From positions 29,019 to 93,018 of IMG/VR virus record IMGVR_UViG_3300018465_000004: a stretch of DNA of 64,000 bases; one strand, 5' to 3'. A program made the position numbers and the translations under genes. The DNA is from a virus. Below, piece by piece: positions 1,414 through 20,380 of the stretch (within the stretch, counting starts at the first letter, position 1; each line of letters begins with the position of its first letter). The notes under the pieces were generated by a model that was not told where the DNA came from, searched no databases, and was given only the letters and a program-made list of their open reading frames with translations.

Positions 1414-1474
1414 CAACTGTTCTGCACCCGACCAACCACTGTGCAAGCGCCTAGCGCCCCGTACCCTTGGTCGG

Positions 1475-3633: not shown

Positions 3634-3654
3634 CCGCTACCCAGTGTGGCAGGA

Positions 3655-4407: not shown

Positions 4408-4455
4408 TCCAGCCGTAGAAGAAGGGCCTGACCATCCGGTCAGGCCCTTCTTCGA

Positions 4456-5019
4456 TCACACCTTGGTACAGAACCCGCTGAGGCACTCGGTACATGCCGG
4501 CACGAGCGCGACCTGCCCGGCTGTCTCCAGCCTCGCGAGGGAATGCTTCACGATCAGGTGGGTGCAGACGTCGCAGGTGTTGCCGCCCTCGACCTCGGCA
4601 AGCGCCAGCTCCGGGAAGGCGCCGACCAATGCAAACACGAGGTCGGGACGGCTTATCTGGGTCTCGTCGCGGACGATCGAGACCCAGAATCCCCGGTCGG
4701 CGGGGTCGGTCCTCGTCAGGAAGATCTGGCAGGCCGGGATCTGGCGGGCGATGACGTACGCCTTCATCAAGGAGATCATGGCGGCGATCGTTACTGCGCC
4801 GCCGATCGCGACCAGCCAGGTCCAGCCGCCGCGGAGCTGCCCGGCAATGTAGCCGGATACGAGCAGCATCCAGCCGCCACCCCAGGTGGCGAAAAGCAGC
4901 AGCGTCCGCCGCGAATCTTCCCAGCGGAGCATCCGCCAGATCGTGCGGGCTATCCAGAGCGCGATTCGGACGAGCGGCTGGCGCCTGAACCAGCTCATGA
5001 GACGGCTTGAGTTGAGCAC
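4456..5019 (-). CDS. Membrane protein with C-terminal CxxC pairs
   Basis: Two TM-like segments, CDVC and CTEC. Confidence 0.6.
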   Translation of the reverse strand: MLNSSRLMSWFRRQPLVRIALWIARTIWRMLRWEDSRRTLLLFATWGGGWMLLVSGYIAGQLRGGWTWLVAIGGAVTIAAMISLMKAYVIARQIPACQIFLTRTDPADRGFWVSIVRDETQISRPDLVFALVGAFPELALAEVEGGNTCDVCTHLIVKHSLARLETAGQVALVPACTECLSGFCTKV

Positions 5020-5081
5020 GTCGGCAACCTAGCGCAGTCCCGATCCCGCGCCCCGTGACCACGATGTCCTCACCCGTCCGG

Positions 5082-5111
5082 GTGAAAGGAGCCGGCCCGG
5101 ATCTGTAGGTA
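5082..5111 (+). promoter_or_regulatory. Class II element-specific promoter GYGAAH-N17-GTAGRTA
   Basis: Same bipartite motif and spacing at 19216, 27221, 54307. Confidence 0.6.
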
Positions 5112-5142
5112 CAAGCATGACGTCAACCCCCGGCGGGCCGTA

Positions 5143-6018
5143 GTGCCCGCGCTCAAGTTCCACGAGATCGCCGAGGTGTTCCCGCTCTTCCCTGAAGACC
5201 GGCTGCGATCGCTCGCCGACTCGATCGCTGTGAACGGTCTTCGGCATCCGATCGTGCTCTTTGAGGGCGCCATCCTCGACGGCCGGAACCGGTACCGGGC
5301 GGCCAAGGTCGCCGGCTACGAGACCCAGCCGAGAGACTTTGTCGACTTCGCCGGTACCTGGGATGACGCGCTCCAGTTCGTTGCCGACGAGAACCTGGAA
5401 CGGCGGGACCTCAACCCAGATCAGCGCGCCTTGGCTGCTGCCCGCCTGGCGCAGCTGGGGCGCGGTCGGCCGTCCTCGGAAAATGCCGCCACTGGCGGTA
5501 TTTCTCTCGCTGATGCTGCGGAGAAGGTAGGAGTCAGCCGCAGTCGGGCGGAGCGAGCGCGTTCGGTACTCAACCGTGGCGCGTCAGAGCTGGCAGATTC
5601 GGTCGCGCGAGGAGAGGTAACCGTTCGAGCGGCTGCCGATATCGCGAAGTTGCCGGCTGACGAACAGAAAAAGACCCTTGCCGGGGGACCGGAGGCCGTC
5701 AAGGACGCCGTTGCTGGGGTGCGCGCCCGCGCCCGGCCGCTCGTGCGGCCCGAGCCGACGGAGAGCGAGATCGCTGCCCGTCGGGGTCAGGTCGCGAACG
5801 ACCTGGTTGACCGGCTCATAGCTGCCGTCAAGATCGTGGAGCAGGCTGCCAGCAAACTCGCCGCCGGTGAGACGTCGCTGAGCCAGGGCAGCCAAGAGAT
5901 CGTGTTGATGGCCGCTGGCCGGCTGAGGTCTGGAGCGGATTGGGTCGCAGCGTTGATCAAGGGCGACGGGTTCTCGGATGAGGCGTTGGCCGCATGGCTG
6001 AGAGGGGAGTCGCAGTGA
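5143..6018 (+). CDS. ParB/Srx-like domain protein
   Basis: LADSIAVNGLRHPI, ILDGRNRYRA, ENLERRDL, then HTH-like region. Confidence 0.85.
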   Translation: MPALKFHEIAEVFPLFPEDRLRSLADSIAVNGLRHPIVLFEGAILDGRNRYRAAKVAGYETQPRDFVDFAGTWDDALQFVADENLERRDLNPDQRALAAARLAQLGRGRPSSENAATGGISLADAAEKVGVSRSRAERARSVLNRGASELADSVARGEVTVRAAADIAKLPADEQKKTLAGGPEAVKDAVAGVRARARPLVRPEPTESEIAARRGQVANDLVDRLIAAVKIVEQAASKLAAGETSLSQGSQEIVLMAAGRLRSGADWVAALIKGDGFSDEALAAWLRGESQ

Positions 6019-6512
6019 GCGCGCCGATTGAGACGCCTAGGGACCCGGCGGCTGAGCCCTCCGCGACGCACCGTCGGGCGTCGATGATTCTGAATTGGTT
6101 GAGGGACCCCAGTCGAACCGGGCAAGACTTCAGGCTCTGGGAGATTGCTGCCGCACTCGGTATGGACAGCGGTGCGAGTACCGCGGCGACGTTGGCGCGC
6201 GACCTGGCGATGGAGCATCGCGAGGTCATCACCTATGCACACCGTGCGGACGGTGAATGGTGGGTGAGCCATCACTACCCCGACGGATTTGATGGTCGAG
6301 TCACCGAGGGGCTCCTGATCCAGGACAAGGATTTGGTCTCCCGGACGCGACGGCAGGCGCGGATGCAGACGCTCAACGCGGAGCATGCGCCTGACCCTCT
6401 GGACCGAGCGTGGTCCCGAATGAAGGCCGAGGTGCTGAATGCCAACCTCGTTGTCTACTCCTCGATGGATGCCTTGCGAGCTGAGCTAGAAAAGATCCGG
6501 CGGGGGCAATGA
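6015..6512 (+). CDS. Hypothetical protein
   Basis: GAGGGGAG RBS, start overlaps ParB stop. Confidence 0.6.
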   Translation: MSAPIETPRDPAAEPSATHRRASMILNWLRDPSRTGQDFRLWEIAAALGMDSGASTAATLARDLAMEHREVITYAHRADGEWWVSHHYPDGFDGRVTEGLLIQDKDLVSRTRRQARMQTLNAEHAPDPLDRAWSRMKAEVLNANLVVYSSMDALRAELEKIRRGQ

Positions 6513-6703
6513 AAGCGTCGCCGCCGAGTGCTGAGTATCCCTATGAGGATGTCCGTGAATTTGTCATGCGCCGGTCGTTCCTGCGTGGTTGGCGCGTGAC
6601 CGAGTTGGAGTACGACGGGCTCAAGGCTCGGACAGCCGACCTGCCCGAGGAGCGGGCTGCATACCTGCGGGCGTTCATCGATGGCTGGCTCGCGGCTCGT
6701 TGA
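6509..6703 (+). CDS. Hypothetical protein
   Basis: ATGA overlap with upstream stop. Confidence 0.55.
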   Translation: MKASPPSAEYPYEDVREFVMRRSFLRGWRVTELEYDGLKARTADLPEERAAYLRAFIDGWLAAR

Positions 6704-6991
6704 TGCGCAGCGTCAGTATCACCCGGCCGGGTTGGCGCGTCCGCGCTGGCCCGGTCCGGTGTGCTGCTGGAATAGCAAGAGCCCGCGGCAAGACTCACCC
6801 GTTCGTGGGATCTGACACGCATTGTGCGGATTTGATTGCGTAGCGTGATTTGCCCTGGTTACGCTCTTGCCGTGAGAGGGGCGCCGAGGCGCTCCGCCTG
6901 GACCAGCGGATTCCCAGCGCTCTAGGGCTGCCGGCCCAATACCGGCGCCTGGTCCGGTGCCCCTCTCTCCACAGTGGAGGAAGGCACGGGG

Positions 6992-7405
6992 ATGAAATTC
7001 ACCGAGTACATCATCGGCGTTCTCGCCAGCAGTGCTCAGGCTGGCGTGCAGGACTGGGTCACGTGGACGGCGAACACCGAGGAGGACAAGCCGCCGATCG
7101 AGTTCTTCGTCGAGACCGGCAGCATGTTCAGCCCGGACGCGGAGCCGCTGACGCCGAAGAACCTGCCGGCCTACCAGGACGCCCTCCAGGTGGTCGGCAA
7201 CGTCACCGGCGGGGACTACACCTACGGCCCGGCGCTGTTCGTGGCCCGGCAGCGCGGCGTCCGGCCGGACAACCACCAGTACCCGTCCGATGTCCGGCTG
7301 CATCCGCTCTTCGACGACGCCGGTCCGCCGCCGGAAGCTGCACCTGACCCGCCTTCGCACCAGGAGCCGCTGCCCGAGCCCGAGCCGGTGGGGGTCCAGC
7401 CGTGA
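6992..7405 (+). CDS. Hypothetical phage protein
   Basis: GGAGG RBS, strong GC3 bias. Confidence 0.65.
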   Translation: MKFTEYIIGVLASSAQAGVQDWVTWTANTEEDKPPIEFFVETGSMFSPDAEPLTPKNLPAYQDALQVVGNVTGGDYTYGPALFVARQRGVRPDNHQYPSDVRLHPLFDDAGPPPEAAPDPPSHQEPLPEPEPVGVQP

Positions 7406-7608
7406 GCGTCGCACCGCCCGACTTCGACATCGTCGGCCGCGCCCTGCGTCACCGACGCCGCCTCGTCGTTGTTGCCAATAGGGAGCCTGCGCTCGGCGCT
7501 GGCTTCATCTGCCGGGTCAACCCGCTCGGCTGCCCCGGCCACCGTTCCCGTTCGATGTCCTGCCCAGACGCGGACATCCGCCCCCAACCCAAGGAGATCG
7601 CCGCATGA
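7402..7608 (+). CDS. Small Cys-containing hypothetical protein
   Basis: Coupled overlaps at both ends. Confidence 0.45.
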   Translation: MSVAPPDFDIVGRALRHRRRLVVVANREPALGAGFICRVNPLGCPGHRSRSMSCPDADIRPQPKEIAA

Positions 7609-8219
7609 TCGTCGTCGTCACCAGGCCGCCCGTCCAGACCGCCCGCGGCCCGGTGCCCTACCCCGAAGCCGTGGTCGCGTCGCAGGTCCACGCGGCCATA
7701 CACCTGGAGGCTCTGTTGAAGTACGACCCCGCGCCGGCTACCAACGCACCGCTGGTCCGCGCGACCCTGGCTCATATCGAGGCCGACCCTGACGGGTGGA
7801 GCCAGCTCGGCTGGAACCGCCGGACCGATTGCGGCACCACGGCCTGCTTCGCCGGCACGGCGCACCTCCTGGCGACCGGACGCCCGATGGTCGACGCCGA
7901 CGACAACGCCATGCAGATCGTCGAGGTCGTCCGCCACCTCGGCTTCACCGCCGACCAGGCCGCCCGGATCTTCTACTTCATGTCCGTCATCGACGCGGAG
8001 ACCGAGCAGCCACGCGAGCCAAACTTCGCCGAGCTGTGCGCCCAGGTCGCCGCGGTGACCGGCATCGTCTACACCCCCGGCGGCCAGCTCGCCCTCACCG
8101 CGGCCCCCGTGCTGCCGCCACAACAGGGCCTCGTCGAGGCAGCCATCACCCGCCATTACCAGGAGATGGTGTCCCAGGTGGAACTCGGGGAGCGTCGGGA
8201 GCTTGTCGGTGCCAGCTAG
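7605..8219 (+). CDS. Hypothetical protein, CG[TS]TxCxAG family
   Basis: AAGGAG RBS; IEADPDGWSQ...CGTTACFAG. Confidence 0.7.
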   Translation: MIVVVTRPPVQTARGPVPYPEAVVASQVHAAIHLEALLKYDPAPATNAPLVRATLAHIEADPDGWSQLGWNRRTDCGTTACFAGTAHLLATGRPMVDADDNAMQIVEVVRHLGFTADQAARIFYFMSVIDAETEQPREPNFAELCAQVAAVTGIVYTPGGQLALTAAPVLPPQQGLVEAAITRHYQEMVSQVELGERRELVGAS

Positions 8220-8649
8220 CGCGCTGGACAGCCCGCTCGACGCCAGGCTGGCCGAAGTCCGCGATCGGTTGACACGTGCGCCCGACTACGACGCGGCGTT
8301 CGTGGCGTTGTCTCGCGCCGATACAGAAACACTGCGGGCGCTTGAGGAAGAGCTTGCGTTCCTGCCGGGGCCGGCGGCCACGTTGCGCGAGCGGCTGGCC
8401 GCCGCCCACGTCGCGCGGGTGCGGGGGAAGGTGGCCATGACGACCCGGCGGGTGACGCCCAAGGCGGTCGCTCGCTGGGCCGTGGATGCCGTCTGGTTCG
8501 GCCTGAACGGCAGCACCGACCTGGAAGACATCGGTCAGTACCGTATCTCCCCGGACCCGGTGATGCCGCAGCTGTTCGAGGTGACCACCCTGGCCGGGAC
8601 CCATCCGCGCCGGTTCCTGGTCACCGTCGGCGTCCAGGAGCTGGTGTGA
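8203..8649 (+). CDS. Hypothetical protein
   Basis: GGGAG RBS, operon overlap. Confidence 0.55.
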   Translation: MSVPASALDSPLDARLAEVRDRLTRAPDYDAAFVALSRADTETLRALEEELAFLPGPAATLRERLAAAHVARVRGKVAMTTRRVTPKAVARWAVDAVWFGLNGSTDLEDIGQYRISPDPVMPQLFEVTTLAGTHPRRFLVTVGVQELV

Positions 8650-8993
8650 GCACCGCCGTCATGCACAAGGTGGACGCCCTGCGGCTGCGGGCGGCAGTCG
8701 AGGCTATCGAGTTTGATCCGAGACGCTGGGATCAGAACAGCTACCTGGGCGAATGCGGATCGACGTACTGCCTGGCCGGGTGGGTCTGCCACCTGGCCGG
8801 GCTGGACGTTCGCCGGCTGCTCCGTGAGGGTTTCCACGACGTCTTCCAGCGCGCCATGGCGCTGCTCGACCTGGACCCTGGCCAGGCTGACGACCTGTTC
8901 ATGTACATGGAGAACGACCGCGGCGAGCACCCGACGGTCGAGGAGTTCAAGGCTCGCATCACGCAGGTGACGGGGGTGACATTCGATGTATGA
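8646..8993 (+). CDS. Hypothetical protein, paralog of 7605..8219
   Basis: IEFDPRRWDQ...CGSTYCLAG. Confidence 0.7.
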   Translation: MSTAVMHKVDALRLRAAVEAIEFDPRRWDQNSYLGECGSTYCLAGWVCHLAGLDVRRLLREGFHDVFQRAMALLDLDPGQADDLFMYMENDRGEHPTVEEFKARITQVTGVTFDV

Positions 8994-9516
8994 CAACTGC
9001 GCTCCGTCTTCGCGGCGCGCCACTGCGGACCAGATCAAGGACTGGATAGCCACCCAGAGACCGCTTGTTGAAGTCGTCGACGCCATCATCCCGGCGCTCG
9101 GGCTCGGCGAGCCGAGGATTGTGGTCGGACCCAAGTTCTATCCCCGCGAGTCCGGCCTGTTGCCGGCGCACCTGCGCCGGGGCGCGGTGTGGTTCGTCGG
9201 TCGCCCGGTCACCAACACCGGCTTCCGGGTCGAGTTCTACGGTCCGCGGCTGCGGATCTCGGCGTGGGGTCAGAACCGGACCTGCACCATCGACTCCACC
9301 GATGTCGAACCGGGGTCCTTCGCGAAAGACCTGTGGGTTGCGCTCCAGGTTGCGCGGCTGGCCCCGACATCGGCGCCGCTCCCCATGCCCCCTGTCGTCG
9401 ACGACGGGCATGGCAACGTCTGGTTTCCATGCCGGCCAGGGTGCGACCTCCAGGTCGTGCGGCCCGGCAAGGCCCAATGCTCCTGCCCGGACAACATGGT
9501 CTCGGCAGACAGGTAA
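8986..9516 (+). CDS. Hypothetical protein
   Basis: Operon overlap, C-terminal Cys cluster. Confidence 0.55.
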   Translation: MYDNCAPSSRRATADQIKDWIATQRPLVEVVDAIIPALGLGEPRIVVGPKFYPRESGLLPAHLRRGAVWFVGRPVTNTGFRVEFYGPRLRISAWGQNRTCTIDSTDVEPGSFAKDLWVALQVARLAPTSAPLPMPPVVDDGHGNVWFPCRPGCDLQVVRPGKAQCSCPDNMVSADR

Positions 9517-9536
9517 CAGGAACTGGATCATCCGCG

Positions 9537-9728
9537 ATGGACGACATGAAGGACTGGCTCGTGCACGCCACCCGGGCGAACTACTACCACTGCCAGCGCT
9601 GCAAGCGCCCGGTGGATGCCTCCGACGGCAGGAACAGGAGCGAGGTGCTCGCGATCCTCATTGCGCATCGCACCTTCAATTGCACCGCGGATCCGTTCGC
9701 CGGGATCACCCAGCTGGTGATGGCATGA
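9537..9728 (+). CDS. Small hypothetical protein
   Basis: AGGAA upstream, CQRC motif, ATGA overlap with next gene. Confidence 0.45.
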   Translation: MDDMKDWLVHATRANYYHCQRCKRPVDASDGRNRSEVLAILIAHRTFNCTADPFAGITQLVMA

Positions 9729-9925
9729 CGTCCGACCTGCTGGATCTGCGCTGGTATGCGCACGAGAACGACCTGATCGGCAGCTGGTGCGTCACCGCGC
9801 AGGACGCACCGCCGGCTCGTACCGACCAGGTCATCGCCGACTTCATCGACGAGCGGACCGCCCGGTACATCGCCGAGCTACACAACTGGGTTCGCTTCGG
9901 TGACCCGCAGCCGGTACCTGCGTGA
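9725..9925 (+). CDS. Small hypothetical protein
   Basis: ATGA overlap, GC3 bias. Confidence 0.55.
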   Translation: MTSDLLDLRWYAHENDLIGSWCVTAQDAPPARTDQVIADFIDERTARYIAELHNWVRFGDPQPVPA

Positions 9926-10059
9926 GACGGTCGGCTGGCTGATCTTCCTAGCCGGCCTTCCGGTCTGCTCCCGGTACTCCTTCTGGGGCGGGCTAGCGCT
10001 CATTCTGGTCGGGCTGGTCATGGCGCAGTTCTGACGTTGCCGAGCCGGTAGAAGCAGGT

Positions 10060-10290
10060 GTGACCCTGCACTACGCCGGCTGCCCACTGTGGAGTGACGA
10101 CTGGGGCCGGTGCTCATGTCCCCGACCGTGGCGCATTGTCCGCGACCGCATTGCCCCGGGCAGGCAACCATGGCTGGTCCTGCACTGGGAGGCAGACGGC
10201 AAGTATCACCTGCTGGTGCGTACCCTCACCTGGGCCCGTGCCATGCGCCTGGTCGACCAGCTCATCGTCTTCGACAGGACGTTCACGTGA
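10060..10290 (+). CDS. Hypothetical protein, leaderless
   Basis: GTAGAAG 5 nt before the GTG. Confidence 0.6.
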   Translation: MTLHYAGCPLWSDDWGRCSCPRPWRIVRDRIAPGRQPWLVLHWEADGKYHLLVRTLTWARAMRLVDQLIVFDRTFT

Positions 10291-10431
10291 CCGACCCGGA
10301 CGAGCGTCTCCCGCCCCCGGCCGATGATGTGCTGGTGCGCCCGTTCACCTGCGGCGGATTCGACTGCCCCTGCGAGGACGGGCGAACATGCCCGGACCCC
10401 CGGTGTCAGTGCGCCCGCGAGCCCGCAGGGG

Positions 10432-10980
10432 GTGGCGCTTAACGCGCCGGCTGGCCCAATTCACCACCGCGTTGTTGCAGCAAGAAGAGTCCAGCCGCGC
10501 TTGGAGTCGTACTTCAGCGTTGAAAGGAAGCCTTGCGTGTTGACCACCGCTGTAAAGACCCGCCGCCGGATCACTGTCACGGCGGTTCGCGAAGTCCTGG
10601 AGGAGATCGCCCGGGACTACCCGTGGCGCCAGGACCGCCGCGTGACCGACGAGCGTCCGGTTCGCTATGTCGACTTCGGACAGCCGTCCTGCCTGGTCGC
10701 CCACGTCCTGATCCGGCTCGGCTACTCGGTGGGCGTGCTTCGCGCCCTGGATGCCGAACATCGCACCGGCGAGCTGTTCCGGGCGGGCGGGGTCAAGGTC
10801 GCCGAGTCTCGACATCCGGCCCTGCGCCGGATCGATCCGACGGCGCGCCGGCTCCTGCAATACGTTCAAGATCAACAAGACCGTGGAGAGGCGTGGGGTC
10901 GCATCGTCGCCGCCGCCTTCCGCCCGTCCAGGTTCTTCCCCCGCCTCGACAGGGAGCGCAGACCGTGGTTGTGCGCCTAG
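10432..10980 (+). CDS. Hypothetical phage protein
   Basis: PSCLVAHVLIRLG motif; start uncertain. Confidence 0.55.
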   Translation: MALNAPAGPIHHRVVAARRVQPRLESYFSVERKPCVLTTAVKTRRRITVTAVREVLEEIARDYPWRQDRRVTDERPVRYVDFGQPSCLVAHVLIRLGYSVGVLRALDAEHRTGELFRAGGVKVAESRHPALRRIDPTARRLLQYVQDQQDRGEAWGRIVAAAFRPSRFFPRLDRERRPWLCA

Positions 10981-11225
10981 ACCGCCAGACCGGCACGTGC
11001 GCCCATTGTGGACGCCGGGACGTGGGCACCCCTGACGCTGGCTACAGCGGGATCAACGGCGAGCGGCTGTGTCACCCGAACGTCAACGGCAGACCCGACT
11101 GCTATCGGCTGGTGACCGTCTACAACCACCCGCTGGACTGCCGGTGCGAGGACCGGGTCCCGATCGCCGGTAGTCGTGATGCAGCGATCTGGGCCGGTCC
11201 CCGCCAGGTGGTCGTCAGGGTCTGA
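10971..11225 (+). CDS. Small Cys-rich protein
   Basis: CAHCG, CHPN, DCYRLVT. Confidence 0.5.
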   Translation: MRLDRQTGTCAHCGRRDVGTPDAGYSGINGERLCHPNVNGRPDCYRLVTVYNHPLDCRCEDRVPIAGSRDAAIWAGPRQVVVRV

Positions 11226-11638
11226 GCCGGGAGACGTCGTAGCGGCCGTCCCAGGTCCGCAACCACCCCTCCGGTTCGCCTCGCGGGTTGCCACGCCAGA
11301 CAGCGATGGCGGAGGTGATCCGGATGAAGCCGGTCGTCGAGACAGCTCTATACACCCAGAACCGGGGCGGATCGTTGAAGCCTTCCACCTCGCCCACGGT
11401 CCAGGTGGGGGAGTTGCGGGTCAGGGTGATCGGCGGCCAGTCCTCATCGGGCGGTGTGTAGTGCAGCACCAGAACGCGGGGATTCTCCGGCTCCTCGTCC
11501 CGGGTCAGCGCGACCCCGTGGGACATGGCTACCCGGATCAGGTGCGCGGCCTGTTGCTGGACGAGGGCGATGGCCCTGCGGTCGTCCTCGTCCTCGGTCG
11601 TGAGGCATGAATGAAAAAGGTCCACAGGGGACCAACGA

Positions 11639-11849
11639 TGATCCACGGAGGCGAGATGTGGGACGGGTAACCGACCCAGCGGAGCAGGTCGTTCGAGCCC
11701 GTAGATGCCGCGGGTGTGGTGCTGGCCCGCAGATGCCGTGCACCAACAAGCCCTCCGGCCGGCGGATGCACATCTCGCACAAGGCCCGTTGGGACGACGC
11801 CCGACCCGAGCTGGCGGTGCCGACCGCACCAGCCGGCTTCATCCTCTAG
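11639..11849 (+). CDS. Small zinc-finger-like protein
   Basis: GGAGG RBS; CRGCGA..PC..H; start approximate. Confidence 0.45.
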
Positions 11850-12266
11850 CGCGGAAAACCCCCGTCCTCGTCGGTAGAACAGGGTGGGTGCCAGTACCTC
11901 CTGCGGCTGGCACCCTCCACAAACTGGGCCGGGTCGTGGTAGCCGCAAGCGTCTTCCCTGGATGTGCGGCGCGCTCCCCCCCAGGGGCGCCACGCCCCGG
12001 CCCCCTGGCTCCGCCACCGAGCCGCGGAGTTGGGGGTGTAGGGCGGGATCGGTAGTCCCGGGTTGGTCGACCATCAACTCGGGACGGGGGAAGACCAGTC
12101 CCGCCCTGCACTCTCGATGAGTTGTCGAGCCGATGAAACAGGAGCCCCCGTGCGGCAGCCGCCACCGTCTGACCGGCGGGGGCCCCAGGCTCAACCGAAG
12201 TGTCAGCGCGCTGTGAATGCAAACCCGAAGGGATCCACATGTACGGGCTTCTGAACGTTCTGGTCA

Positions 12267-12731
12267 ATGTCTTCAGCGTCAACTTCTACGGCTGCTGCTG
12301 ACCCGAGTCCCGACCCGGACTCAGACACGGGGCTGGCACTGATTCCCTCGGAGGGTGGGGGAGAGGTGCCAGCCCCGTCCCGTCGCATCAGGATCCGCCG
12401 CCCCCGCCGGCTGGCCGTCGTCACGGGTGAACCGAAGCCCCGCGCCCACGGCGCCCAGAGCCCACGCAAGTGGTTCCCCGGCATGACCTGCGCCATCTGC
12501 GGCGAGGCCGTTCGAGCTTGGCAGCCGTTCAACTTCGACCACCAGGTTCCGATGTCCAAGGGCGGCCGGCGCGGCAAGGCCAACAAGACCTTCACCCACA
12601 CGTTGTGCAACAGCGTCAAAGGTGACCGCTACCCGTTCAACCTGCGCACCCCGGCGGAACGCGAAGCCGTCCGCGCCGTCGTCTCCGAGCGCACCTATGC
12701 CCGGCTGGAGCGGACCTGGCGCGGCGCCTGA
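12267..12731 (+). CDS. HNH endonuclease
   Basis: CAICG...DHQVPMSKGG...HTLCNSVKGD. Confidence 0.85.
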   Translation: MSSASTSTAAADPSPDPDSDTGLALIPSEGGGEVPAPSRRIRIRRPRRLAVVTGEPKPRAHGAQSPRKWFPGMTCAICGEAVRAWQPFNFDHQVPMSKGGRRGKANKTFTHTLCNSVKGDRYPFNLRTPAEREAVRAVVSERTYARLERTWRGA

Positions 12732-12752
12732 GGTCCAGCCGATAGAGACTGC

Positions 12753-13031
12753 ATGTCGTTCGAGAGCGAGTACCCGAACCTTGCCTACCTCCTCGACGAG
12801 GTCTTCGAGTCCGTCGGCAGCATCAAGCTCGCGCTCAAGGACGGCGACCTCGACCCGGAGGAGATCGTCGCCGCGATCCCGGACCCGGACGTGCGGGAGT
12901 ACGTACTCAAGCTGCTGACCGCGCTCAAGGAGCTACCGGCCGAGGTCAAGGCCGTCGCCGAGGGCGGACCGTGGAAGATGATCGGCGTCTTCCAGTCGGT
13001 CGCGTCGAAGGTCATGGCGATCTTCAAGTAG
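12753..13031 (+). CDS. Hypothetical protein
   Basis: Strong GC3 bias, helical acidic composition. Confidence 0.65.
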   Translation: MSFESEYPNLAYLLDEVFESVGSIKLALKDGDLDPEEIVAAIPDPDVREYVLKLLTALKELPAEVKAVAEGGPWKMIGVFQSVASKVMAIFK

Positions 13032-13034
13032 CCA

Positions 13035-13062
13035 TTGCCGGGCAAGCCCCGCCCGGTATGAT
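13035..13062 (+). promoter_or_regulatory. Housekeeping-type leaderless promoter TTGCCG-N16-TATGAT
   Basis: -10 lies 6 nt before ATG 13069. Confidence 0.6.
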
Positions 13063-13068
13063 GGCGGT

Positions 13069-13332
13069 ATGACCAAGAAGATCGCCATCAGTCTCCCTGA
13101 CGATGTGGCTGACCATCTCGCAGGACAGCCCAACGTGTCTGCGTACGTCGCTGCTGCGGTCCGCGCCCGGATGAACCCCAGCCGCCTCGAAGAGATGCTT
13201 CGCGCGGTCGGGTATGAGATCACTGAAGCGGGCAAGTCGGCCTGGCGTGACCGGCTCGCTCAGCCGCTCGGCCGCGCAGCGCTGGAACGCAGCCGGATGT
13301 TCCGGGAGAAGTACGGAATTCCCCAAGGGTGA
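13069..13332 (+). CDS. RHH (CopG-like) antitoxin
   Basis: MTKKIAISLPDDVA...NVSAYVAAAVR; overlaps PIN-like gene. Confidence 0.75.
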   Translation: MTKKIAISLPDDVADHLAGQPNVSAYVAAAVRARMNPSRLEEMLRAVGYEITEAGKSAWRDRLAQPLGRAALERSRMFREKYGIPQG

Positions 13333-13760
13333 ACCAGGTCGCTGTCGTCCTGGCGGCCTCTGCGCTCAGGCAATACGCCCGTGGTCCGGTTGAGGGCTTG
13401 GCTGTCGCCGAGCTGATCAGTGAGGTTCGAGACGAAGGTCGGCAGGTCGCCATCTCTGCGGTCTCGCTGGCGCAGGCGATTGCCGTCCAAGGTCCAGACC
13501 GCGGCTCCTTCGGGCTCGCGCTGCTGGAGTGGTTCACTTCCGACGGATCCGACTTTCTCGTCGTCGAGATGGCGCTCGAACAGGTGCTGCCGGTCGGCAA
13601 CATCGCCCGCGATTTCGGCATCGAAGTCGCCCTCGCACACGAGGTGCTGCTCGCCACCCGGTTCAATGCTCAGTTCGCGACCACTGAGCCCGACGTCGCC
13701 CGGCGGGTGCTCGGGGATGACTGGCCCATCCTGGACGTGACCCAGGGACCCTTTAGCTAA
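13329..13760 (+). CDS. Degenerate PIN-domain (VapC-like) protein
   Basis: VVLAASAL and LAQA where active PINs usually have LD[AT]SAL and LAEA; size and position after RHH gene. Confidence 0.6.
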   Translation: MNQVAVVLAASALRQYARGPVEGLAVAELISEVRDEGRQVAISAVSLAQAIAVQGPDRGSFGLALLEWFTSDGSDFLVVEMALEQVLPVGNIARDFGIEVALAHEVLLATRFNAQFATTEPDVARRVLGDDWPILDVTQGPFS

Positions 13761-13773
13761 TAGGAGGTGCCGC

Positions 13774-13956
13774 TTGCAGACTGAGGACGATCGCCCCGCT
13801 ACCGACTTTGACGCTGAGACCTACCGGATTACCGGCCGACGTCAGCTCGAAGAAGCGGGTTTCGCGATCACTGACGAGGGCATTCAGCGGTGGCGTGCAA
13901 GGTTCCAGGCCGCTCGCGACCGGATCCAGGCCCGCCGCGATGAGCGGACCTCATGA
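13774..13956 (+). CDS. Paralog of the antitoxin C-terminal domain
   Basis: AGGAGGT RBS; LEEAGFAITDEGIQRWRARF vs LRAVGYEITEAGKSAWRDRL. Confidence 0.65.
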   Translation: MQTEDDRPATDFDAETYRITGRRQLEEAGFAITDEGIQRWRARFQAARDRIQARRDERTS

Positions 13957-14171
13957 GGAACTACTCCGTCGAAGAGTTCGAACGTCGCTTCGACGAGCTG
14001 CTGGGCCTTGTCGTGACCGGTGAGGCCATCGGCATCTCCGTCCGCGGCAAGCCTGCCGCTGTTGTCGTGCCGCGGGCCTACTACGACCTGCTGACAGCCA
14101 AGGCCGACGCCAACGACAGGTCCGTGCGGGCCGTCGAGGAACACCTGGCCGACCCGGGACTGCACAGCTAG
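13953..14171 (+). CDS. Phd/YefM-family antitoxin, orphan
   Basis: YSVEEFERRFDELL..V.TGE.I.ISVRGKPAAVVVP. Confidence 0.8.
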   Translation: MRNYSVEEFERRFDELLGLVVTGEAIGISVRGKPAAVVVPRAYYDLLTAKADANDRSVRAVEEHLADPGLHS

Positions 14172-14213
14172 CCACAGCCTTCAATCGGCTGCGTCGAGCC
14201 GGTAGAAGCCTGT

Positions 14214-16754
14214 GTGACGCGCAACTACGGGCTGATCAACTCGATCGACGAGCTGGCCCGGTTCTGCGACCGCCTGTCCCAGGGCGACGACGCGATCGCC
14301 TTCGACATCGAGACCGGCTACCTCGGGGTGGAGCGGGAGAAGTTTTCGCTGCACCCCGAGACCGCTCTCGTCGCCGGGATCAGCTTCACCGTCTCAGCCG
14401 ACTGGGCGCGCTACGCCCCACTCGGCCACGATGATTACCCCAACCTGGACAACCTCGACGCCTCCCGGCTGCTCTGGCCCCTGCTCAACACCGGACGCGG
14501 CGTCGCACACAATGCCCCGTTCGAGCTAAGGCATCTTGCCAGGTGGTTCCGGGATCTCCTTAGCGATGACCCGGACTTCGGCGAGCAGGTGCGCGCCAGT
14601 GATGGCTACTTCCCGGTCCGAAGCGACACCCAGGTTGAGTCCTACCTTGCCGCGGAGCACCCGCAGTTCGGTCTGAAGTACCTGGCCTGGGAGATCTTCG
14701 GCATCAAGATGACCGAGCTGCACGAGCTGTTTCCCGGGCTGGCCAAGAACAAGCGGAAGTACCTGCGGTTCAACACCCTCGACCCCCGTGAGCCCCGAGT
14801 TTTCAACTACGCCTGCGAGGACAGCGTCGGTTCGCTGCTGCTGCACCAGCGCTACCACGAATACGTGCGGGAGAAGCCGCTCTACCCGGTAGAGATGGGC
14901 ATCGTCGAGGAGTGCATCCCTCCGATGGAGGACTTCGGCGTCCGCTACGACTGGCTCCTCATGCGACGCACTGCCGAAGCCCTGCGGTCCTTCCGGGACC
15001 GGTACAACGCCGAGATCATGCGCGAGCTGTCCGACATGGTCGGACAGCCTGTCGCCATAAACATCGCCTCCCCGCCGCAGCTGTCCAAGCTGTTGTTCGA
15101 GCAGCTCGGCTTCCGCACCACCGTCTACACCGCCAAGACCCGGGACCTGCCTCCCGAGGAACGCAAGATGTCCACCGGCAAGATCGCCCTCGCCGGCCTC
15201 GCGAAGAAGCACCCGGTCGTGCAGAAGATCCGCGACTGGAAGGAGATGACCCGGCTCCTCGGCACCTACCTGGAGAAGTACGAGGGTCTCTACGCCTACG
15301 CCGCGGACGGCCGGACCCACCCCAACCACATGTCCGCGGTCGTCGTCACCGGCCGCTTCGCAGTCGGGGATCCGCCGTACCAGCAGTCGCCGAAGGTGTA
15401 CCACTACGACCTGGAGCCGGCCCGCGAGGCACACGCCCAGCATGCGCAGGCCCACGGTCCAAAGTGCACCTGCGACGAGTTCCCGCCGCCGCCGGACACC
15501 TGCTTCAAGTTCAACTTCCGCGACGTCATCGTCGCCCCGCCCGACCACTACATCCTCGGCTTCGACCTGAGCCAGGCCGAGCTTCGCGCCATTGCCGGTG
15601 AAGCCCAGGAGCCGGCGCTGCTCAAGGCGTTCGCGGATGGAACCGATGTCCACACCCTGACCGCGGCCCTGATGCTCAAGGTCTCCGTCGAGGACGTCAC
15701 CAAAGACCAGCGTGACATCGGCAAGACGATGAACTTCGCACTGCTCTACGGCATGCGCGAGAAGAGTCTCGCCGACCGGCTCGGCATCCCGATCGAGGAA
15801 GCCAAGGAGCTGTACGAGAAGTACTTCTCGGTCTACTCCCGCATCGCCGCGTGGGCCGCCAAGCAGGTCGAGCTGGGCCGCACCTACGGCTACGTCACCT
15901 CGCGGTTCGGCCGCAAGCTTCCCATCTGGGAGTACCGCTCGGAGAAGCGCTGGATCCGGCAGAAGGGTGACCGGGCCTGCGTCAACTACCCGATCCAGGG
16001 CTCCGCCACCGGAGACTTCGTCAAGATCGCCATGGTCCGGGCCCAACGCGCCCTGCGCGCGGCCGGCATCGCCGACCGGGTCCACCTGGTCATGAACGTC
16101 CACGATGCGCTGGAGTTCTATGTCCACCGCACCTTGCTGCCGCAGGACGTCATCCGCATCCTCCAGCCGGCGGTCATCTTTCCTGTCGACGGATGGCCCG
16201 CCATGAAGGCCGACTGGCACTTCGGCCGCAAGTGGGGCAGCCCCTACGAGATCGAGGTCACCGAGGACAACCGATTCATCGTCAAGGGTGAGGTCGAGTA
16301 CGAACTCAAGCCGTCCATTGAGGAGGACGAGGACACCGGGGAAGAGGTCGAGGTCTTCCCTGAGATCGACTACGACGTCCTGCGCCAGGCCCTCGGCCGC
16401 GACCCGGAGCCGGCGCCGCCGCCTGTCGTGCCGCAACAACGCACTTCCGAGGCCGAGCCGCACGCGCCGGCGCAACCCTCCACAGAGGAGGGCCGTCAGC
16501 TCATCCTCGAACTCCTCGACATGCCCACCGCAGCCGGCTACGAGAGGTTCCTCGAACTCCTCGACAGCCTCCCCGGCCCGCACCAGCTCACCCTGCGCAC
16601 CCCGGACGGAGAGCTGCCCCTGTCGCTAGGGGTCGGTACCAGTCTCGGTACCAAGGACTTGGCGCAGGTATACCTGCTGCTCGGTGAGGCGAAGCTCTAC
16701 TTCGACGCCGCCGACGTCGACTCAAGCACGTTGCTCGACGGGATCACCCTGTAA
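14214..16754 (+). CDS. polA: Family A DNA polymerase with 3'-5' exonuclease and extra C-terminal domain
   Basis: ExoI FDIET, ExoII HNAPFE, ExoIII YACED; motif A DLSQAELR, motif B KTMNFALLYG, motif C VHDAL. Confidence 0.95.
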   Translation: MTRNYGLINSIDELARFCDRLSQGDDAIAFDIETGYLGVEREKFSLHPETALVAGISFTVSADWARYAPLGHDDYPNLDNLDASRLLWPLLNTGRGVAHNAPFELRHLARWFRDLLSDDPDFGEQVRASDGYFPVRSDTQVESYLAAEHPQFGLKYLAWEIFGIKMTELHELFPGLAKNKRKYLRFNTLDPREPRVFNYACEDSVGSLLLHQRYHEYVREKPLYPVEMGIVEECIPPMEDFGVRYDWLLMRRTAEALRSFRDRYNAEIMRELSDMVGQPVAINIASPPQLSKLLFEQLGFRTTVYTAKTRDLPPEERKMSTGKIALAGLAKKHPVVQKIRDWKEMTRLLGTYLEKYEGLYAYAADGRTHPNHMSAVVVTGRFAVGDPPYQQSPKVYHYDLEPAREAHAQHAQAHGPKCTCDEFPPPPDTCFKFNFRDVIVAPPDHYILGFDLSQAELRAIAGEAQEPALLKAFADGTDVHTLTAALMLKVSVEDVTKDQRDIGKTMNFALLYGMREKSLADRLGIPIEEAKELYEKYFSVYSRIAAWAAKQVELGRTYGYVTSRFGRKLPIWEYRSEKRWIRQKGDRACVNYPIQGSATGDFVKIAMVRAQRALRAAGIADRVHLVMNVHDALEFYVHRTLLPQDVIRILQPAVIFPVDGWPAMKADWHFGRKWGSPYEIEVTEDNRFIVKGEVEYELKPSIEEDEDTGEEVEVFPEIDYDVLRQALGRDPEPAPPPVVPQQRTSEAEPHAPAQPSTEEGRQLILELLDMPTAAGYERFLELLDSLPGPHQLTLRTPDGELPLSLGVGTSLGTKDLAQVYLLLGEAKLYFDAADVDSSTLLDGITL

Positions 16755-16783
16755 TAGAGCCAGTTCCGCAGGTAGATGTACAT

Positions 16784-17077
16784 GTGCTGGTACGTCATGG
16801 CTGGTCCGGCGAAGTGCAACCCAACGTGTGGGCCAAGATCGACATCACGTTGGAGGAGGAAGACCTCCGCCGCATCCTCGGCCCCGGCTACCGGGACCTG
16901 CCCGGCCTGACCACCGCCGTCGCCTACCAGCTCCTCGAACTGGAATGCGAACGGCTCGTCATGGCCAAGCTCGTGACCCGCCACGGCTACAACCCGGTCG
17001 AGGGCGCAGCCAAGATCGGTGAGCTTGACCAGCAGAAGAACGCCATCCGCGACCGCCTACTCCGGGCCAGCCAGTGA
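16784..17077 (+). CDS. Hypothetical protein, leaderless
   Basis: GTAGATG 5 nt before the GTG. Confidence 0.65.
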   Translation: MLVRHGWSGEVQPNVWAKIDITLEEEDLRRILGPGYRDLPGLTTAVAYQLLELECERLVMAKLVTRHGYNPVEGAAKIGELDQQKNAIRDRLLRASQ

Positions 17078-17565
17078 GCGACCTCGCGGACCGGCTCAAC
17101 ACCCACCTCACCGAGGCGATCCTGCTGCGCGGCGAGCTGCCGCCGATGCCCGGCACACAGGCCGCCCCACACGAGGTACATGAGCACCTGCTCGACGTCC
17201 GCCGCCGGCTCGACCGCGTCGAACACCTGCTCGCCCTGGGCCTTCGCGTGCGCGCCATGGCCCACCGCGGCGTAGCCCGCAGCACCGCCGACGCAGAAGA
17301 GGCGTGGGATGACGCCATCCTGCGGGTCCGCTCCGCCCCGGTCCGTCGCGGAGATGAGTACTCCTCTGCCCGCGAACGTGCCGCCGAGGCCAACCTCGCC
17401 ACCATCGAAGCCCGCAGGGCCGTCCGCGCAGCCCAGGACGCAGCGTCGCACTGCGACGAGGCGGTCGACGTCCTGCGCACCCTGCACCGCGGCCTGGACA
17501 GCGTCCGCCAGGACACCCTCGCAGTGCTCCGCCTCATGCAGTTCGAGTCCCACCTGGAGAGGTAG
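17074..17565 (+). CDS. Helical/coiled-coil hypothetical protein
   Basis: Operon overlap, GC3 bias. Confidence 0.7.
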   Translation: MSDLADRLNTHLTEAILLRGELPPMPGTQAAPHEVHEHLLDVRRRLDRVEHLLALGLRVRAMAHRGVARSTADAEEAWDDAILRVRSAPVRRGDEYSSARERAAEANLATIEARRAVRAAQDAASHCDEAVDVLRTLHRGLDSVRQDTLAVLRLMQFESHLER

Positions 17566-17574
17566 AAGCCGTTG

Positions 17575-18102
17575 ATGCCCGACACGGCACGCCGTCGTCG
17601 ACTGTTCATCCGTGCTGAAGATCTGCGCCGGGCGCTGCGGGTGCCGGAGCACCTCAATGTCACCTCGATGGTGTCCTCGTGGGACCCACCCGGGCTCAAC
17701 GTCTACGTCACCAGCGATGCCTACTCGCCCGTCCCGCCGGGAGCGGTCGCCCCCGAGCTGGTCTTCGTCCCCCGCCCGTCCCAGCTGGACCCGGACTCCG
17801 CCGGATCCGACCCCGGCTGGGGCACCAACGACATCCTGCGCGCCGGCCGCGAGATCTGGGGCTCGGACCCCATGAGCCTGACCCACGTCGCCGCGTGCGC
17901 AGCTGTCGTAGCGGGCGACATCGCCCGCATCGCCCGCGACGCGATCGAAGGCGCCGGCTCAGATGAAGGCGTCGCCCGGGAACTGGGCAACCTCATCGTC
18001 TCCGCGGTCCGGTGGGCTGACGACCTCGGCTTCGACCCGGCGCAGTGTGTCCAGGAAGCACTCAGCGCCCAGCAGCGATACGTCTACCGCCGGGGGCGGT
18101 GA
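17575..18102 (+). CDS. Protein with C-terminal MazG-like (all-alpha NTP-PPase) domain
   Basis: GDIARIAR...VARELGNLIVSAVRWADDLGFDP. Confidence 0.55.
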   Translation: MPDTARRRRLFIRAEDLRRALRVPEHLNVTSMVSSWDPPGLNVYVTSDAYSPVPPGAVAPELVFVPRPSQLDPDSAGSDPGWGTNDILRAGREIWGSDPMSLTHVAACAAVVAGDIARIARDAIEGAGSDEGVARELGNLIVSAVRWADDLGFDPAQCVQEALSAQQRYVYRRGR

Positions 18103-18797
18103 ACGGGATCCGTTGCTATGTCTGCAAAAACAACATCGCGGCCGGAGCCGCCGCCACCAAGATGATTGTCGAGTACGCCCAGCCGGACTCCACGGTCAAG
18201 ATCTTCGGTTACATGATGCCCGACGGCCCGCTGTCCAAGGCCACCGGTCGCATGGTCCGCGGCTACCACCACAAATGCTTCTGGGTGATCCGCAAACGCG
18301 AAGCCCGCGGCGACGCCGTCACCGGCCGGGTCCTCTACGGCGTCCCCACCGCCTACGAGATCGGCGCCCTGGTGCTGTCCCGAGAGGAGTTCGAGGCGCT
18401 GGGCCTCACCGCCGATCAGGCCCGCCAACAGGGCACCGCCTACCTCACCGAACGGCTCGACAAGCTGCGCACCATCGCCCGGCGCATCGGCAAAGGCGTC
18501 GGTGACGCCACCGTCCTGGAGGCGTACTGGGCCGACACCCACGCCGGCCCCTACCCACACAAGCACCACCTCCCGCTGGAGATCTACCAGCTCCGAGCGC
18601 ACCTGACCTACGCCCACGGCCTGGACGCTGCCGCCGTCCACAACCGCGACGGAATCCGGGGCGTCCACGACGCGCTACACACAGCCGCCGTAATGGCCGA
18701 AATAGAAATGGCGCGCGAAACAGACCCCGGCTACCAAGCGCCGGGCGAATCGGACTGGCGTGAGCAGGTAGTAGAGGACGTAGAAAACCTCAGGTGA
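18099..18797 (+). CDS. Hypothetical protein with N-terminal Zn-binding motif
   Basis: CYVC...YHHKC. Confidence 0.65.
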   Translation: MNGIRCYVCKNNIAAGAAATKMIVEYAQPDSTVKIFGYMMPDGPLSKATGRMVRGYHHKCFWVIRKREARGDAVTGRVLYGVPTAYEIGALVLSREEFEALGLTADQARQQGTAYLTERLDKLRTIARRIGKGVGDATVLEAYWADTHAGPYPHKHHLPLEIYQLRAHLTYAHGLDAAAVHNRDGIRGVHDALHTAAVMAEIEMARETDPGYQAPGESDWREQVVEDVENLR

Positions 18798-18844
18798 GGA
18801 GCGTCGTGCTCAGCGAAACCGAAGTCCGAAATGAAGAGGCCGAA

Positions 18845-19180
18845 ATGGCTGAATCGACCGGATACCGTTCAGGAAAGCCACATCCGTTGTGCCTGCTCAT
18901 TCGCGAACTGCGAAACGCAGCCGGCTGGAGCCTGTCGCAGTTCCAGGCGCGATCCGGGATCCCGGCAGTCGTCGTCGGCGCGTACGAGCGCGGCGACCGG
19001 ATCCCTCCCTTGTCCAAGCTGGAGGCCATCTTCGCCGCCTTCGGATACAAGCTCGCCGCCGCACCGGTGGGCTGCGACTCGGTGCGCGTAATCACCGACA
19101 TGGTCGGCGACCTGCGTGCCATCGCCAACCAGCTCGAAGACAGCAAGACCCTGTTTGCCGACTCATCCGCCGAGGAATGA
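18845..19180 (+). CDS. XRE-family HTH regulator
   Basis: IRELRNAAGWSLSQFQARSGIP..VGAYERGDRIP. Confidence 0.85.
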   Translation: MAESTGYRSGKPHPLCLLIRELRNAAGWSLSQFQARSGIPAVVVGAYERGDRIPPLSKLEAIFAAFGYKLAAAPVGCDSVRVITDMVGDLRAIANQLEDSKTLFADSSAEE

Positions 19181-19306
19181 GTGTCCCCATTGTCGACCAT
19201 GGACAGATCGTCTTTGTGAATTGGTCGAAGTCGAATCTGTAGGTAAAGCCGTCAGAACCTTTTGCGCGGTCGCGTCCCGCCCGCCCCTTGAAATCAGGAG
19301 ACGGCC

Positions 19307-20380
19307 ATGCCCGAGATCGATTTCGACCCAGTTCACAAGCGAGTCTCCACCGGCGCCCTCGAATTCGACCGACTGAAGTTGAAGAAGGACGAGAAGGCCC
19401 GCATCGTACTGCTTGAAAAGCCCACCTTCGCCTTCGTCCACACCCTGCGCGCACCCAAGATTGTCAACGGCGTCGCGGTCAAGGTCGAGAAGGAGAGCCG
19501 CAAGGGCGGCACCTACGTCGACTACGACATGGACTTCGTCGGCCGCCCCCACTGTCTCGGCGACTACGGCATCCTGACCGACAAGGGTGTTGACCCCGCC
19601 AACTGCCCAGCCTGCAAGCGGTCCACCCAGACCGACGAGGTCTTCGCCCCCGACCGGCGCTTCGCCATGAACGTCGTCAAGTACGGCATGACCCGTGACG
19701 GCAAGCTGGTCCAGCCCTTCACCTGCGCCAACGTGGTCTGGGACTTCACCGAGGGCGTCTACAACCGCCTCATCGACATCGCCGAGGAGCACGGCGCCCT
19801 GGTCGGCCGGGACCTCCTGCTCGGCCCATGCACCAACGAGGGCTTCCAGAAGTTCGAGATCCAGGCCGGCGCACAGAGTCTCTGGCAGGCCAACGACGCC
19901 ATCAAGACAACGGTTGTCGCCACCTACCAGCAGAACCGCATCCCCGAGCTGGAACGGGCCTGCGGCCGGAAGGTCCAGACCGCCTGGCTGCTCAAGGATC
20001 TGGACTCCATCGCCGAACGGTGGCGCATCGCCCGCGGAGAGACCGACGGCACCGAGATGGCCGGCGCCGCCGCCCTCACCGAGGGCCTGGCCGACCTGCT
20101 CGGCAGCAGCGGGACCACCACCCTGACCGCGCAACCGGCCGTCGACATGAACGTCCTGCTCGGGACCAGCCCCAGCCCAGACGTTGTGCCCACCGCAGAG
20201 CAGGCACCGGCAACCGCCGGCCCGGCACAGCCCGCGTCACCGGCCGGCCCGCCGGACTTCGGCGACCTGCTGGGCACCGGCACGCCGCCGCCCGCGGAGC
20301 AGACCCAGCCCGCGCCTGCTGCCGCAAAGTCCGACGCTCAGACCTACGACTTCGGCTTGATCCTCGACGGGATTAGCTAA
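19307..20380 (+). CDS. gp32-like single-stranded DNA-binding protein
   Basis: AGGAG RBS; HCLG...NCPAC zinc site; long P/A/acidic tail; replication context. Confidence 0.65.
   Translation: MPEIDFDPVHKRVSTGALEFDRLKLKKDEKARIVLLEKPTFAFVHTLRAPKIVNGVAVKVEKESRKGGTYVDYDMDFVGRPHCLGDYGILTDKGVDPANCPACKRSTQTDEVFAPDRRFAMNVVKYGMTRDGKLVQPFTCANVVWDFTEGVYNRLIDIAEEHGALVGRDLLLGPCTNEGFQKFEIQAGAQSLWQANDAIKTTVVATYQQNRIPELERACGRKVQTAWLLKDLDSIAERWRIARGETDGTEMAGAAALTEGLADLLGSSGTTTLTAQPAVDMNVLLGTSPSPDVVPTAEQAPATAGPAQPASPAGPPDFGDLLGTGTPPPAEQTQPAPAAAKSDAQTYDFGLILDGIS

Follow-up and report, generated by a model that had tools for sequence, protein, structure and literature searches.

A cassette of antitoxin-like genes with an apparently disarmed PIN-domain partner in an actinophage genome

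Toxin-antitoxin modules are by now an accepted form of defence against phages, and a few phage antitoxins that defeat them are known. To our knowledge, almost all such antitoxins come from phages of Gram-negative bacteria and are directed at targets other than type II systems. The subject here is a cassette of four small genes found in an actinophage at positions 13035-14171 of a 64,000-nucleotide stretch of DNA, referred to throughout as the window, which corresponds to bases 29019-93018 of the IMG/VR virus record IMGVR_UViG_3300018465_000004, a sequence of 137.6 kb with a GC content of around 66%. The genes encode a probable ribbon-helix-helix (RHH) antitoxin, a PIN-like protein that has lost its one invariant active-site aspartate, a fragment of an antitoxin and a Phd-type antitoxin, a combination that is tentatively proposed to supply antitoxins in trans against the toxins of the host.

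The use of orphan antitoxins as a means of counter-defence by phages is established, for instance with the DarG-like orphans of T4-like phages that act against DarTG1 (PMC11825919), and the Dmd protein of T4 likewise counters RnlA and LsoA (reviewed in PMC7354431). What the cassette shares with these systems is the presence, on a phage, of antitoxin-type genes without a working toxin, at least one of which is homologous to a host antitoxin family. It differs from them in that its components are of the type II RHH and Phd kinds, that it resides in an actinophage with three such genes in a row, that it retains an apparently inactivated toxin together with one antitoxin copy without a DNA-binding half, and that its neutralising activity is a prediction. 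A further precedent is provided by the CcdA protein of Erwinia chrysanthemi, an anti-addiction antitoxin that acts against CcdB of the F plasmid (reviewed in PMC7354431). Here too an antitoxin works in trans on the toxin of a different genetic element, yet the direction would be reversed in the phage, with a mobile element proposed to be guarding itself against its host.

For the individual components the points of reference are different. The best structural match of the 143-residue PIN-like protein is found in VapBC26 of Mycobacterium tuberculosis (5x3t), where the antitoxin gene also comes first and overlaps the PIN gene. The two proteins share only 19% identity, however, the phage protein is missed by the PIN family of Pfam, and the residues Asp4, Glu40, Asp97 and Asp116 of VapC26 are replaced by Ala9, Gln49, Leu102 and Glu120 in the phage. 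The D7A and D7N variants of Shigella flexneri VapC (5ecw, 5ed0), which are among the fold matches, carry a substitution at the same first active-site aspartate, but these mutants were engineered to inactivate the protein whereas the phage change is natural and unique against 72 relatives that bear the aspartate. Finally, the 72-residue protein passes the TIGR01552 model and falls into the length class of the Phd protein of P1 Phd/Doc, a system with which it is compared together with VapB46 (6jqy); unlike in these systems, the phage genome gives no match to Doc, YoeB, RelE/ParE or Pfam-PIN and the gene that follows is polA.

According to the favoured reading, the cassette would be a self-promoted accessory element of the "moron" kind, assembled by the phage from type II toxin-antitoxin modules of actinomycetes in such a way that antitoxin functions were kept and toxin functions lost. 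Host RNA polymerase would transcribe it from a leaderless promoter derived from the host, and three toxin-binding proteins would thereby be supplied, namely a full-length VapB-like antitoxin, a mini-antitoxin without a DNA-binding part and a Phd-type antitoxin. These would act in trans on PIN-type, and possibly other, toxins of the host that, left unopposed, would abort the infection or make the lysogen unstable, so that the cassette could serve against abortive infection during lytic growth or against addiction in the lysogen. The PIN partner, inactivated by the change of Asp9 to Ala, would be retained as a stabiliser of the antitoxin and as a co-repressor. The features on which this proposal draws are as follows.

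13035-13062, + strand: sigma-70-like promoter TTGCCG-16-TATGAT, with the end of the -10 hexamer 6 nt before the ATG at 13069
13055-13062 and 13066-13073, + strand: two direct copies of GGTATGA(T/C), 11 nt apart, a candidate operator for the RHH protein
13069-13332, + strand: 87-residue antitoxin, probably RHH (VapB-like), from the list of open reading frames (ORFs) and from homologues
13329-13760, + strand: 143-residue PIN-fold (VapC-like) protein, with a GTGA overlap with the 87-residue gene
13762-13767, + strand: AGGAGG ribosome-binding site, 6 nt before the TTG of the 60-residue ORF, read from the sequence
13774-13956, + strand: 60-residue ORF with a TTG start, homologous to the C-terminal half of the antitoxin
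13953-14171, + strand: 72-residue Phd/YefM-type antitoxin, with an ATGA overlap with the 60-residue ORF

The evidence that carries the proposal lies largely in the 143-residue protein, which the initial annotation had described as PIN-like. An AlphaFold2 model built from a 23-row alignment has a mean confidence (pLDDT) of 90.5 and a predicted template-modelling score (pTM) of 0.86 and displays the strand-helix order typical of PIN domains, in comparison to a pLDDT of 47.6 for a model from the single sequence, which is unusable. All of the top 37 Foldseek matches of the model in the PDB are VapC or PIN proteins, headed by M. tuberculosis VapC26 (5x3t_B; TM scores 0.74/0.77), and this same protein is the sole match (E 0.022) when the family profile is run against PDB sequences. 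Features from the Atlas are likewise consistent with PIN. The PF01850 (PIN) model of Pfam does not detect the phage protein, which falls below the gathering threshold, and picks up 4 of 23 relatives at E values of up to 1, the best being 9.4e-5. Because of the confident predicted fold, the Foldseek and profile matches and the Atlas features, the protein is assigned as a VapC-like PIN domain that lies beyond the reach of Pfam. When 1.84 billion cluster representatives were searched exhaustively with HMMER, 27 hits were obtained, of which the best other than the protein itself has 45% identity, and a k-mer protein search returned only the query.

The active site was compared across 72 distinct relatives, which are the genes downstream of the antitoxin at host loci, collected with a hidden Markov model (HMM) of the family. 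Site equivalences were taken from a profile alignment to VapC26, with the register at helix H4 set by a conserved Ala seven residues downstream. With the secondary-structure elements named as in PIN domains, the four sites read as follows.

After S1 (VapC26 Asp4): Ala9 in the phage; Asp in 72/72 relatives
After S2 (VapC26 Glu40): Gln49 in the phage; A 22, E 16, R 9, H 6 and Q 6 among the 72 relatives
N-terminus of H4 (VapC26 Asp97): Leu102 in the phage; Leu 49 and Asp 3 among the 72 relatives
After S4 (VapC26 Asp116): Glu120 in the phage; R 38, E 13 and D 7 among the 72 relatives

In PIN domains generally the acids after S1, at the N-terminus of H4 and after S4 are almost always invariant, a fourth and variable acid is usually located after S2, and activity needs at least four acids, with the Asp after S1 being needed for metal binding (PMC5499597). 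Within the present family column 9 is the sole active-site column that is strictly invariant, and the phage protein is its sole exception. The initial annotation had noted an Ala and a Gln where the catalytic Asp and Glu of VapC proteins normally lie. The Ala is borne out by this homologue alignment as a loss peculiar to the phage; the Gln was read correctly, in that Gln49 is equivalent to Glu40, and the column it occupies varies across the family. The reservation made at the time, that the subfamily as a whole might naturally lack these acids, therefore applies to the Glu site and fails at the Asp. Since the only invariant active-site Asp has been lost in the phage alone, the alignment supports a disarming of the phage PIN protein and is stronger evidence of it than was visible to the initial annotation.

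The remainder of the protein does not look degraded. Against a family HMM built without it, the phage PIN protein scores 103 bits (E 1.9e-30), aligned over positions 2-127 of 127, and it retains most of the other highly conserved columns (Y16, L63, A109, T118, L128 and W132). The uniqueness of the Asp9 loss, set beside this full-length profile fit and the pLDDT of 90.5, points to a targeted loss in the gene rather than to decay. The conserved hydroxyl residue is also kept, as Thr118, which is Thr in 68/72 relatives, so that the phage protein has the S4 acid and Thr/Ser combination of PIN domains (Glu120 with Thr118) and lacks the acids after S1, after S2 and at H4.

The family is itself unusual at these sites and, judged from the alignment, is as a whole a non-canonical PIN clade. 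An Asp one residue before the H4 site is present in 68% of the relatives, mainly in the Micromonospora clade, and may substitute for the canonical acid; the phage has Ala101 there. The PIN-like proteins of Micromonospora keep Asp9 and have Leu at the position of the canonical H4 Asp, with the Asp one residue earlier, and Arg at the position of the S4 acid. At codon 105 (window 13641-13643), one helical turn past the position of the canonical H4 acid, the phage alone has Glu; the relatives have Ala, Leu, Val, Thr or Ser, with one gapped.

The partner of the PIN gene is the 87-residue protein, which has no match in Pfam, PHROGs or NCBIfam. Its conserved N-terminus starts MTKKIAISLPDDVA and its C-terminal half contains the motif G-Y-E-I-T-E-A-G...W-R-D-R. 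It has 18 homologues (E 1.4e-12 to 1.3e-7), among them several Micromonospora proteins, and when the family alignment was run against species-representative genomes 73 loci were recovered, mostly in Micromonospora and otherwise in Microbispora, Microtetraspora, Sinosporangium, Sphaerimonospora and a few metagenome-assembled genomes. The N-terminal pattern MTKKIAISxPDDVA...NVSA...R is nearly invariant in this family, and a further block, G-[FY]-x-[ILV]-T-[DE]-E-G, is conserved in the C-terminal half; the phage protein shares 49-60% identity with the Micromonospora copies across approximately the first 53-70 residues. In every host locus examined the antitoxin gene overlaps a downstream PIN-like gene of around 130 codons, and in the phage it likewise stands directly 5' of the PIN gene with the GTGA overlap. 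Gene order and overlap with the PIN gene are those expected of an RHH (VapB-type) antitoxin. The RHH fold is weakly suggested by matches to RHH_5 (E 0.017 at best, in 3 of 16 relatives) and RHH_1 (one relative, E 0.5), and a search of PDB profiles with the antitoxin family gave only chance-level matches. Atlas features group the protein with a "CopG family transcriptional regulator" (0.95, with 204 shared features). Taken with the conserved N-terminal pattern and the weak RHH_5 matches, this makes an RHH antitoxin the probable assignment.

In Micromonospora chokoriensis and in a 54-kb metagenome contig the pair is found at the same place, between the gene for an ABC-F ATPase and otsA. Most of the Micromonospora species sampled have one copy of the pair each (L002:3001-3695, L004:3001-3743 and loci L009-L053), which sits between these same two genes wherever the flanks were checked. 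A PIN pair that is syntenic across a genus and non-canonical in its active site is unusual for a toxin-antitoxin module, and it seems to be unannotated.

The third gene had been described as repeating only the C-terminal segment of the antitoxin, and this is confirmed as a matter of homology. A profile of the host antitoxins, built without phage sequences and run with all filters off, was compared with all 2387 six-frame segments of the phage. The 87-residue gene came first (E 2.2e-29) and the 60-residue ORF second (E 1.6e-5, 22.4 bits), with the next match at 0.028. The ORF covers positions 41-73 of the profile and nothing of positions 1-40, which makes it, on this homology, an antitoxin copy without the DNA-binding half; the half that it retains is presumed, by analogy with VapB proteins, to be the toxin-binding part. 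By BLASTP it shares 8/21 identities (E 0.001) with the neighbouring antitoxin, and its motif AGFAITDEG is nearer to the host consensus aGfeltdeG than is the VGYEITEAG of that neighbour. A strong ribosome-binding site precedes the ORF, whose translation is coupled to that of the Phd gene. Neither a k-mer protein database search with the ORF, which failed to return even the query, nor an Atlas search gave a usable match, and a predicted complex of the PIN protein with the ORF scored 0.12 against a mark of 0.32, a result that counts neither way. An origin by frameshift of an upstream RHH part was considered and rejected, as only 13 nt separate the stop codon of the PIN gene from the ORF and there is consequently no space for a lost N-terminal domain. 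The ORF was also considered as a toxin for Phd in a reversed gene order and rejected on account of its homology to the antitoxin segment. In a bacterial metagenome contig (L007:330-671) a 113-residue gene lies 5' of an Asp-bearing PIN homologue (P0025), and its product combines the C-terminal antitoxin motif AGIVATEAGKQRWRELLSRPIP with a different N-terminus that is without the MTKKI...PDD signature of the RHH part. On this account antitoxin variants without a recognisable RHH may exist in bacteria too.

The fourth gene encodes a Phd/YefM antitoxin that, as had been read from the sequence, is followed by polA without an adjacent cognate toxin gene. It scores 36.1 bits against TIGR01552 (cut-off 20.8), 29.0 bits against PF02604, which is 0.8 under the cut-off of 29.8, and E 3.7e-5 against phrog_375, "Phd-like antitoxin". 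It is the only Phd in the whole genome and the only toxin-antitoxin family of Pfam matched across the 137.6 kb, where ParE/RelE, YoeB, Fic/Doc and Pfam-PIN are without a match. Six weak matches were found in the 401 actinobacterial genomes of the class, in two cases with a PIN toxin gene directly after them. Among solved sequences the closest is VapB46, a Phd-type antitoxin that partners a PIN toxin (a weak match, E 0.079), with P1 Phd next. As two of the six weak relatives precede a PIN gene and the nearest solved sequence is a VapB, there is a weak lead that all three antitoxin-like genes may be of types that partner PIN toxins.

The operon with a host-type promoter that had been proposed for these genes also holds up, both in the coupling of the genes and in the TTGCCG-16-TATGAT promoter, which is the sole sigma-70-like match in window positions 1-20000. 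Its mRNA is probably leaderless, since the -10 hexamer ends only 6 nt before the first ATG. Of the two GGTATGAY copies, the first serves at the same time as the -10 hexamer and the second spans the start codon; the 64-kb window contains no further copies. The promoter region is homologous to those of host antitoxin genes. A GGTATGAC-like word is located 23-25 nt before the ATG in 61/76 distinct host upstream regions from several genera, where a second copy lies over the start codon, a -10-like TAGCGT or TAGCCT is placed between the copies and TTGCC is found further upstream. The spacing of the words is 11 nt in the phage versus approximately 22 nt in the host, and the upstream copy itself now forms the TATGAT of the phage. 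The retention of TTGCCG and of both words at a changed spacing, with the upstream copy turned into a -10 element, indicates that the promoter was captured together with the operon and remodelled afterwards. The GGTATGAY repeats are thus a candidate RHH operator, possibly one common to phage and host.

The observations above establish the gene anatomy, the homologies, the PIN fold, the unique loss of Asp9, the lack of a recognisable toxin in the genome and the homology of the promoter; toxicity of the host homologues, their binding by the phage proteins and a resulting benefit to the phage are inferences. The initial reading, of an operon that neutralises or decoys host toxins, is supported in part. 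Supply of antitoxins in trans is put forward as the leading account, yet with a confidence that stops short of calling it probable, and a series of points weighs against it. Neutralisation of host toxins by the three antitoxin-like proteins is plausible and, from their sequences, predicted only, and type II systems as a rule cross-neutralise one another only narrowly (PMC7354431). The phage PIN protein and antitoxin share only 26-57% identity with the known host copies, and the 151 Micromonosporaceae genomes sampled contain no close relative of the Phd protein. Given the variability of column 49 in the family, Gln49 does not count as a loss peculiar to the phage, and Glu105 could conceivably represent a partial rebuilding of a charged or metal site, or else a chance change. 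The family as a whole is off the canonical PIN acids, the canonical H4 Asp being found in just 3/72 relatives and the S4 acid replaced by Arg in 38/72, and these non-canonical acids along with the syntenic chromosomal locus of Micromonospora mean that the host homologues may not be toxins at all. Moreover, no second phage with the same cassette was found, so that it is known from one metagenomic genome only, and no close relative of the PIN protein was found among around 15 billion proteins; with a single genome and no close relative, selection on the phage PIN gene is not measurable.

FitAB and VapBC proteins form repressor complexes on their own operators. A regulatory module of this kind, with a toxin on neither side, is the most serious of the competing explanations, because the host family is chromosomally syntenic and its active site non-canonical, although it is considered unlikely. 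In such a module the RHH protein and a non-catalytic PIN-like protein would form a repressor complex that autoregulates the cassette and, through the shared GGTATGAC word, may also act on the homologous locus of the host; the 60-residue fragment would compete for the PIN surface and Phd would be a separate DNA-binding regulator. A co-repressor role would account for a PIN protein that is intact yet inactive, the non-canonical H4 and S4 acids and the syntenic Micromonospora locus are atypical of mobile toxin-antitoxin modules, and a direct repeat of the word flanks the -10 in 61/76 host promoters and is remodelled in the phage. The second copy of that repeat lies on the start codon, however, where its conservation is confounded with coding, the clustering of three different antitoxin-type genes is left unaccounted for, and the Asp9 of 72/72 relatives argues that the active-site pocket of the host proteins is still used and that its loss in the phage matters. 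A combination of the two accounts has also been considered, whereby the dead PIN protein and its RHH partner would form a non-toxic complex of high affinity that silences the host locus via its GGTATGAC repeats, with the three antitoxins soaking up PIN toxins already made. This would constitute a transcriptional plus post-translational strategy against toxin-antitoxin systems, built from captured host parts, and it is judged improbable.

It is also rather unlikely, though a little less so than that combination, that the cassette is evolutionary debris, consisting of decaying modules with a point-mutated toxin, an antitoxin fragment and a Phd without its toxin, and having no present function. 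Its occurrence in a single genome fits this explanation, as does the GC content at third codon positions of its first three genes (0.74, 0.78 and 0.69), which is at or below the low end of the values for phage ORFs (median 0.85 and 5th percentile 0.76 for long ORFs); surveys also indicate that many orphan antitoxins of bacteria are remnants of degraded systems (PMC7354431). Yet the four frames are intact and tightly coupled through GTGA and ATGA overlaps, with a strong ribosome-binding site and a well-formed promoter, and the PIN protein combines a full-length fit to its family profile with a confident fold. Coding space is limited even in large phages, and a neutral 1.1 kb is not expected to persist for long. 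The least likely explanation is that of a working toxin-antitoxin or exclusion module, which would stabilise the prophage or exclude other phages by means of a PIN protein that is still toxic in a non-canonical manner, for instance through binding instead of cutting or through a site rebuilt with Glu105, Glu120 and Asp122. Consistent with such a module are a phage that is probably temperate, with both a tyrosine integrase and a large serine recombinase, a classic overlapping operon with the antitoxin first, a promoter that resembles those under autoregulation and the unique Glu105 near the active site. What places it last is the loss of the invariant Asp, a residue conserved with hardly an exception across the superfamily and required for metal binding (PMC5499597), and whose change from Asp to Ala is the standard inactivating mutation (5ecw); nor does it account for the additional antitoxin fragment and the orphan Phd.

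Were the supply of antitoxins in trans to be correct, the cassette would represent a type II (VapBC/Phd) counter-defence in an actinophage, and it would include two designs not found in the literature searched, a naturally inactivated toxin kept beside its antitoxin and a toxin-binding antitoxin fragment that stands by itself. Should it prove to be debris, the cassette still provides a clear snapshot of the decay of toxin-antitoxin modules on a phage. The analysis also brings to light an RHH/PIN-like family, large and apparently unannotated, whose active site is non-canonical and whose locus is syntenic across Micromonospora.

With regard to its setting, the cassette is flanked on the 5' side by a 92-codon gene that ends at 13031 and on the 3' side by polA, which begins at 14214, leaving a gap of 42 nt after the end of the Phd gene. 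A GTAGAAG word lies at 14201-14207, shortly before polA, which appears to have its own signal, with the cassette being a separate unit. By its polA the nearest cultured relative is Microbacterium phage Magritte (133 kb; 36.7% identity), in which the cassette genes were not found before polA, that place holding no more than a gene for an ATPase and a small hypothetical one; as Magritte is without such genes there, the cassette is taken to be an insertion before polA. The INPHARED phage collection gave no match, either to the cassette at the nucleotide level or to the PIN protein sequence, and PADLOC had no match for any of the five proteins tested. The temperate lifestyle of the phage is considered probable because it encodes the following two enzymes, whose genes are close neighbours towards the beginning of the window, around 11-13 kb upstream of the cassette.

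Window ~114-557 (- strand) and ~1952-2416 (+ strand): serine recombinase (568-codon open frame, Resolvase domain E 3.9e-18) and tyrosine integrase (E 1.3e-22)

Homing-type genes such as those for HNH endonucleases are frequent markers of insertion hot spots in the replication modules of phages. An HNH endonuclease gene is present at window positions 12267-12731, two genes 5' of the cassette (PF01844 at threshold; phrog_338 E 6e-9).

The antitoxin/PIN-like pair is also present in two other IMG/VR sequences, of 172.9 and 58.9 kb, which are viral or prophage in nature (L082:3001-3668 and L083:2971-3647, respectively). The 60-residue ORF and the Phd gene are absent downstream of both pairs, and Asp9 is kept in both. 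In the second of these sequences an excisionase-like helix-turn-helix gene is located directly 5' of the pair.

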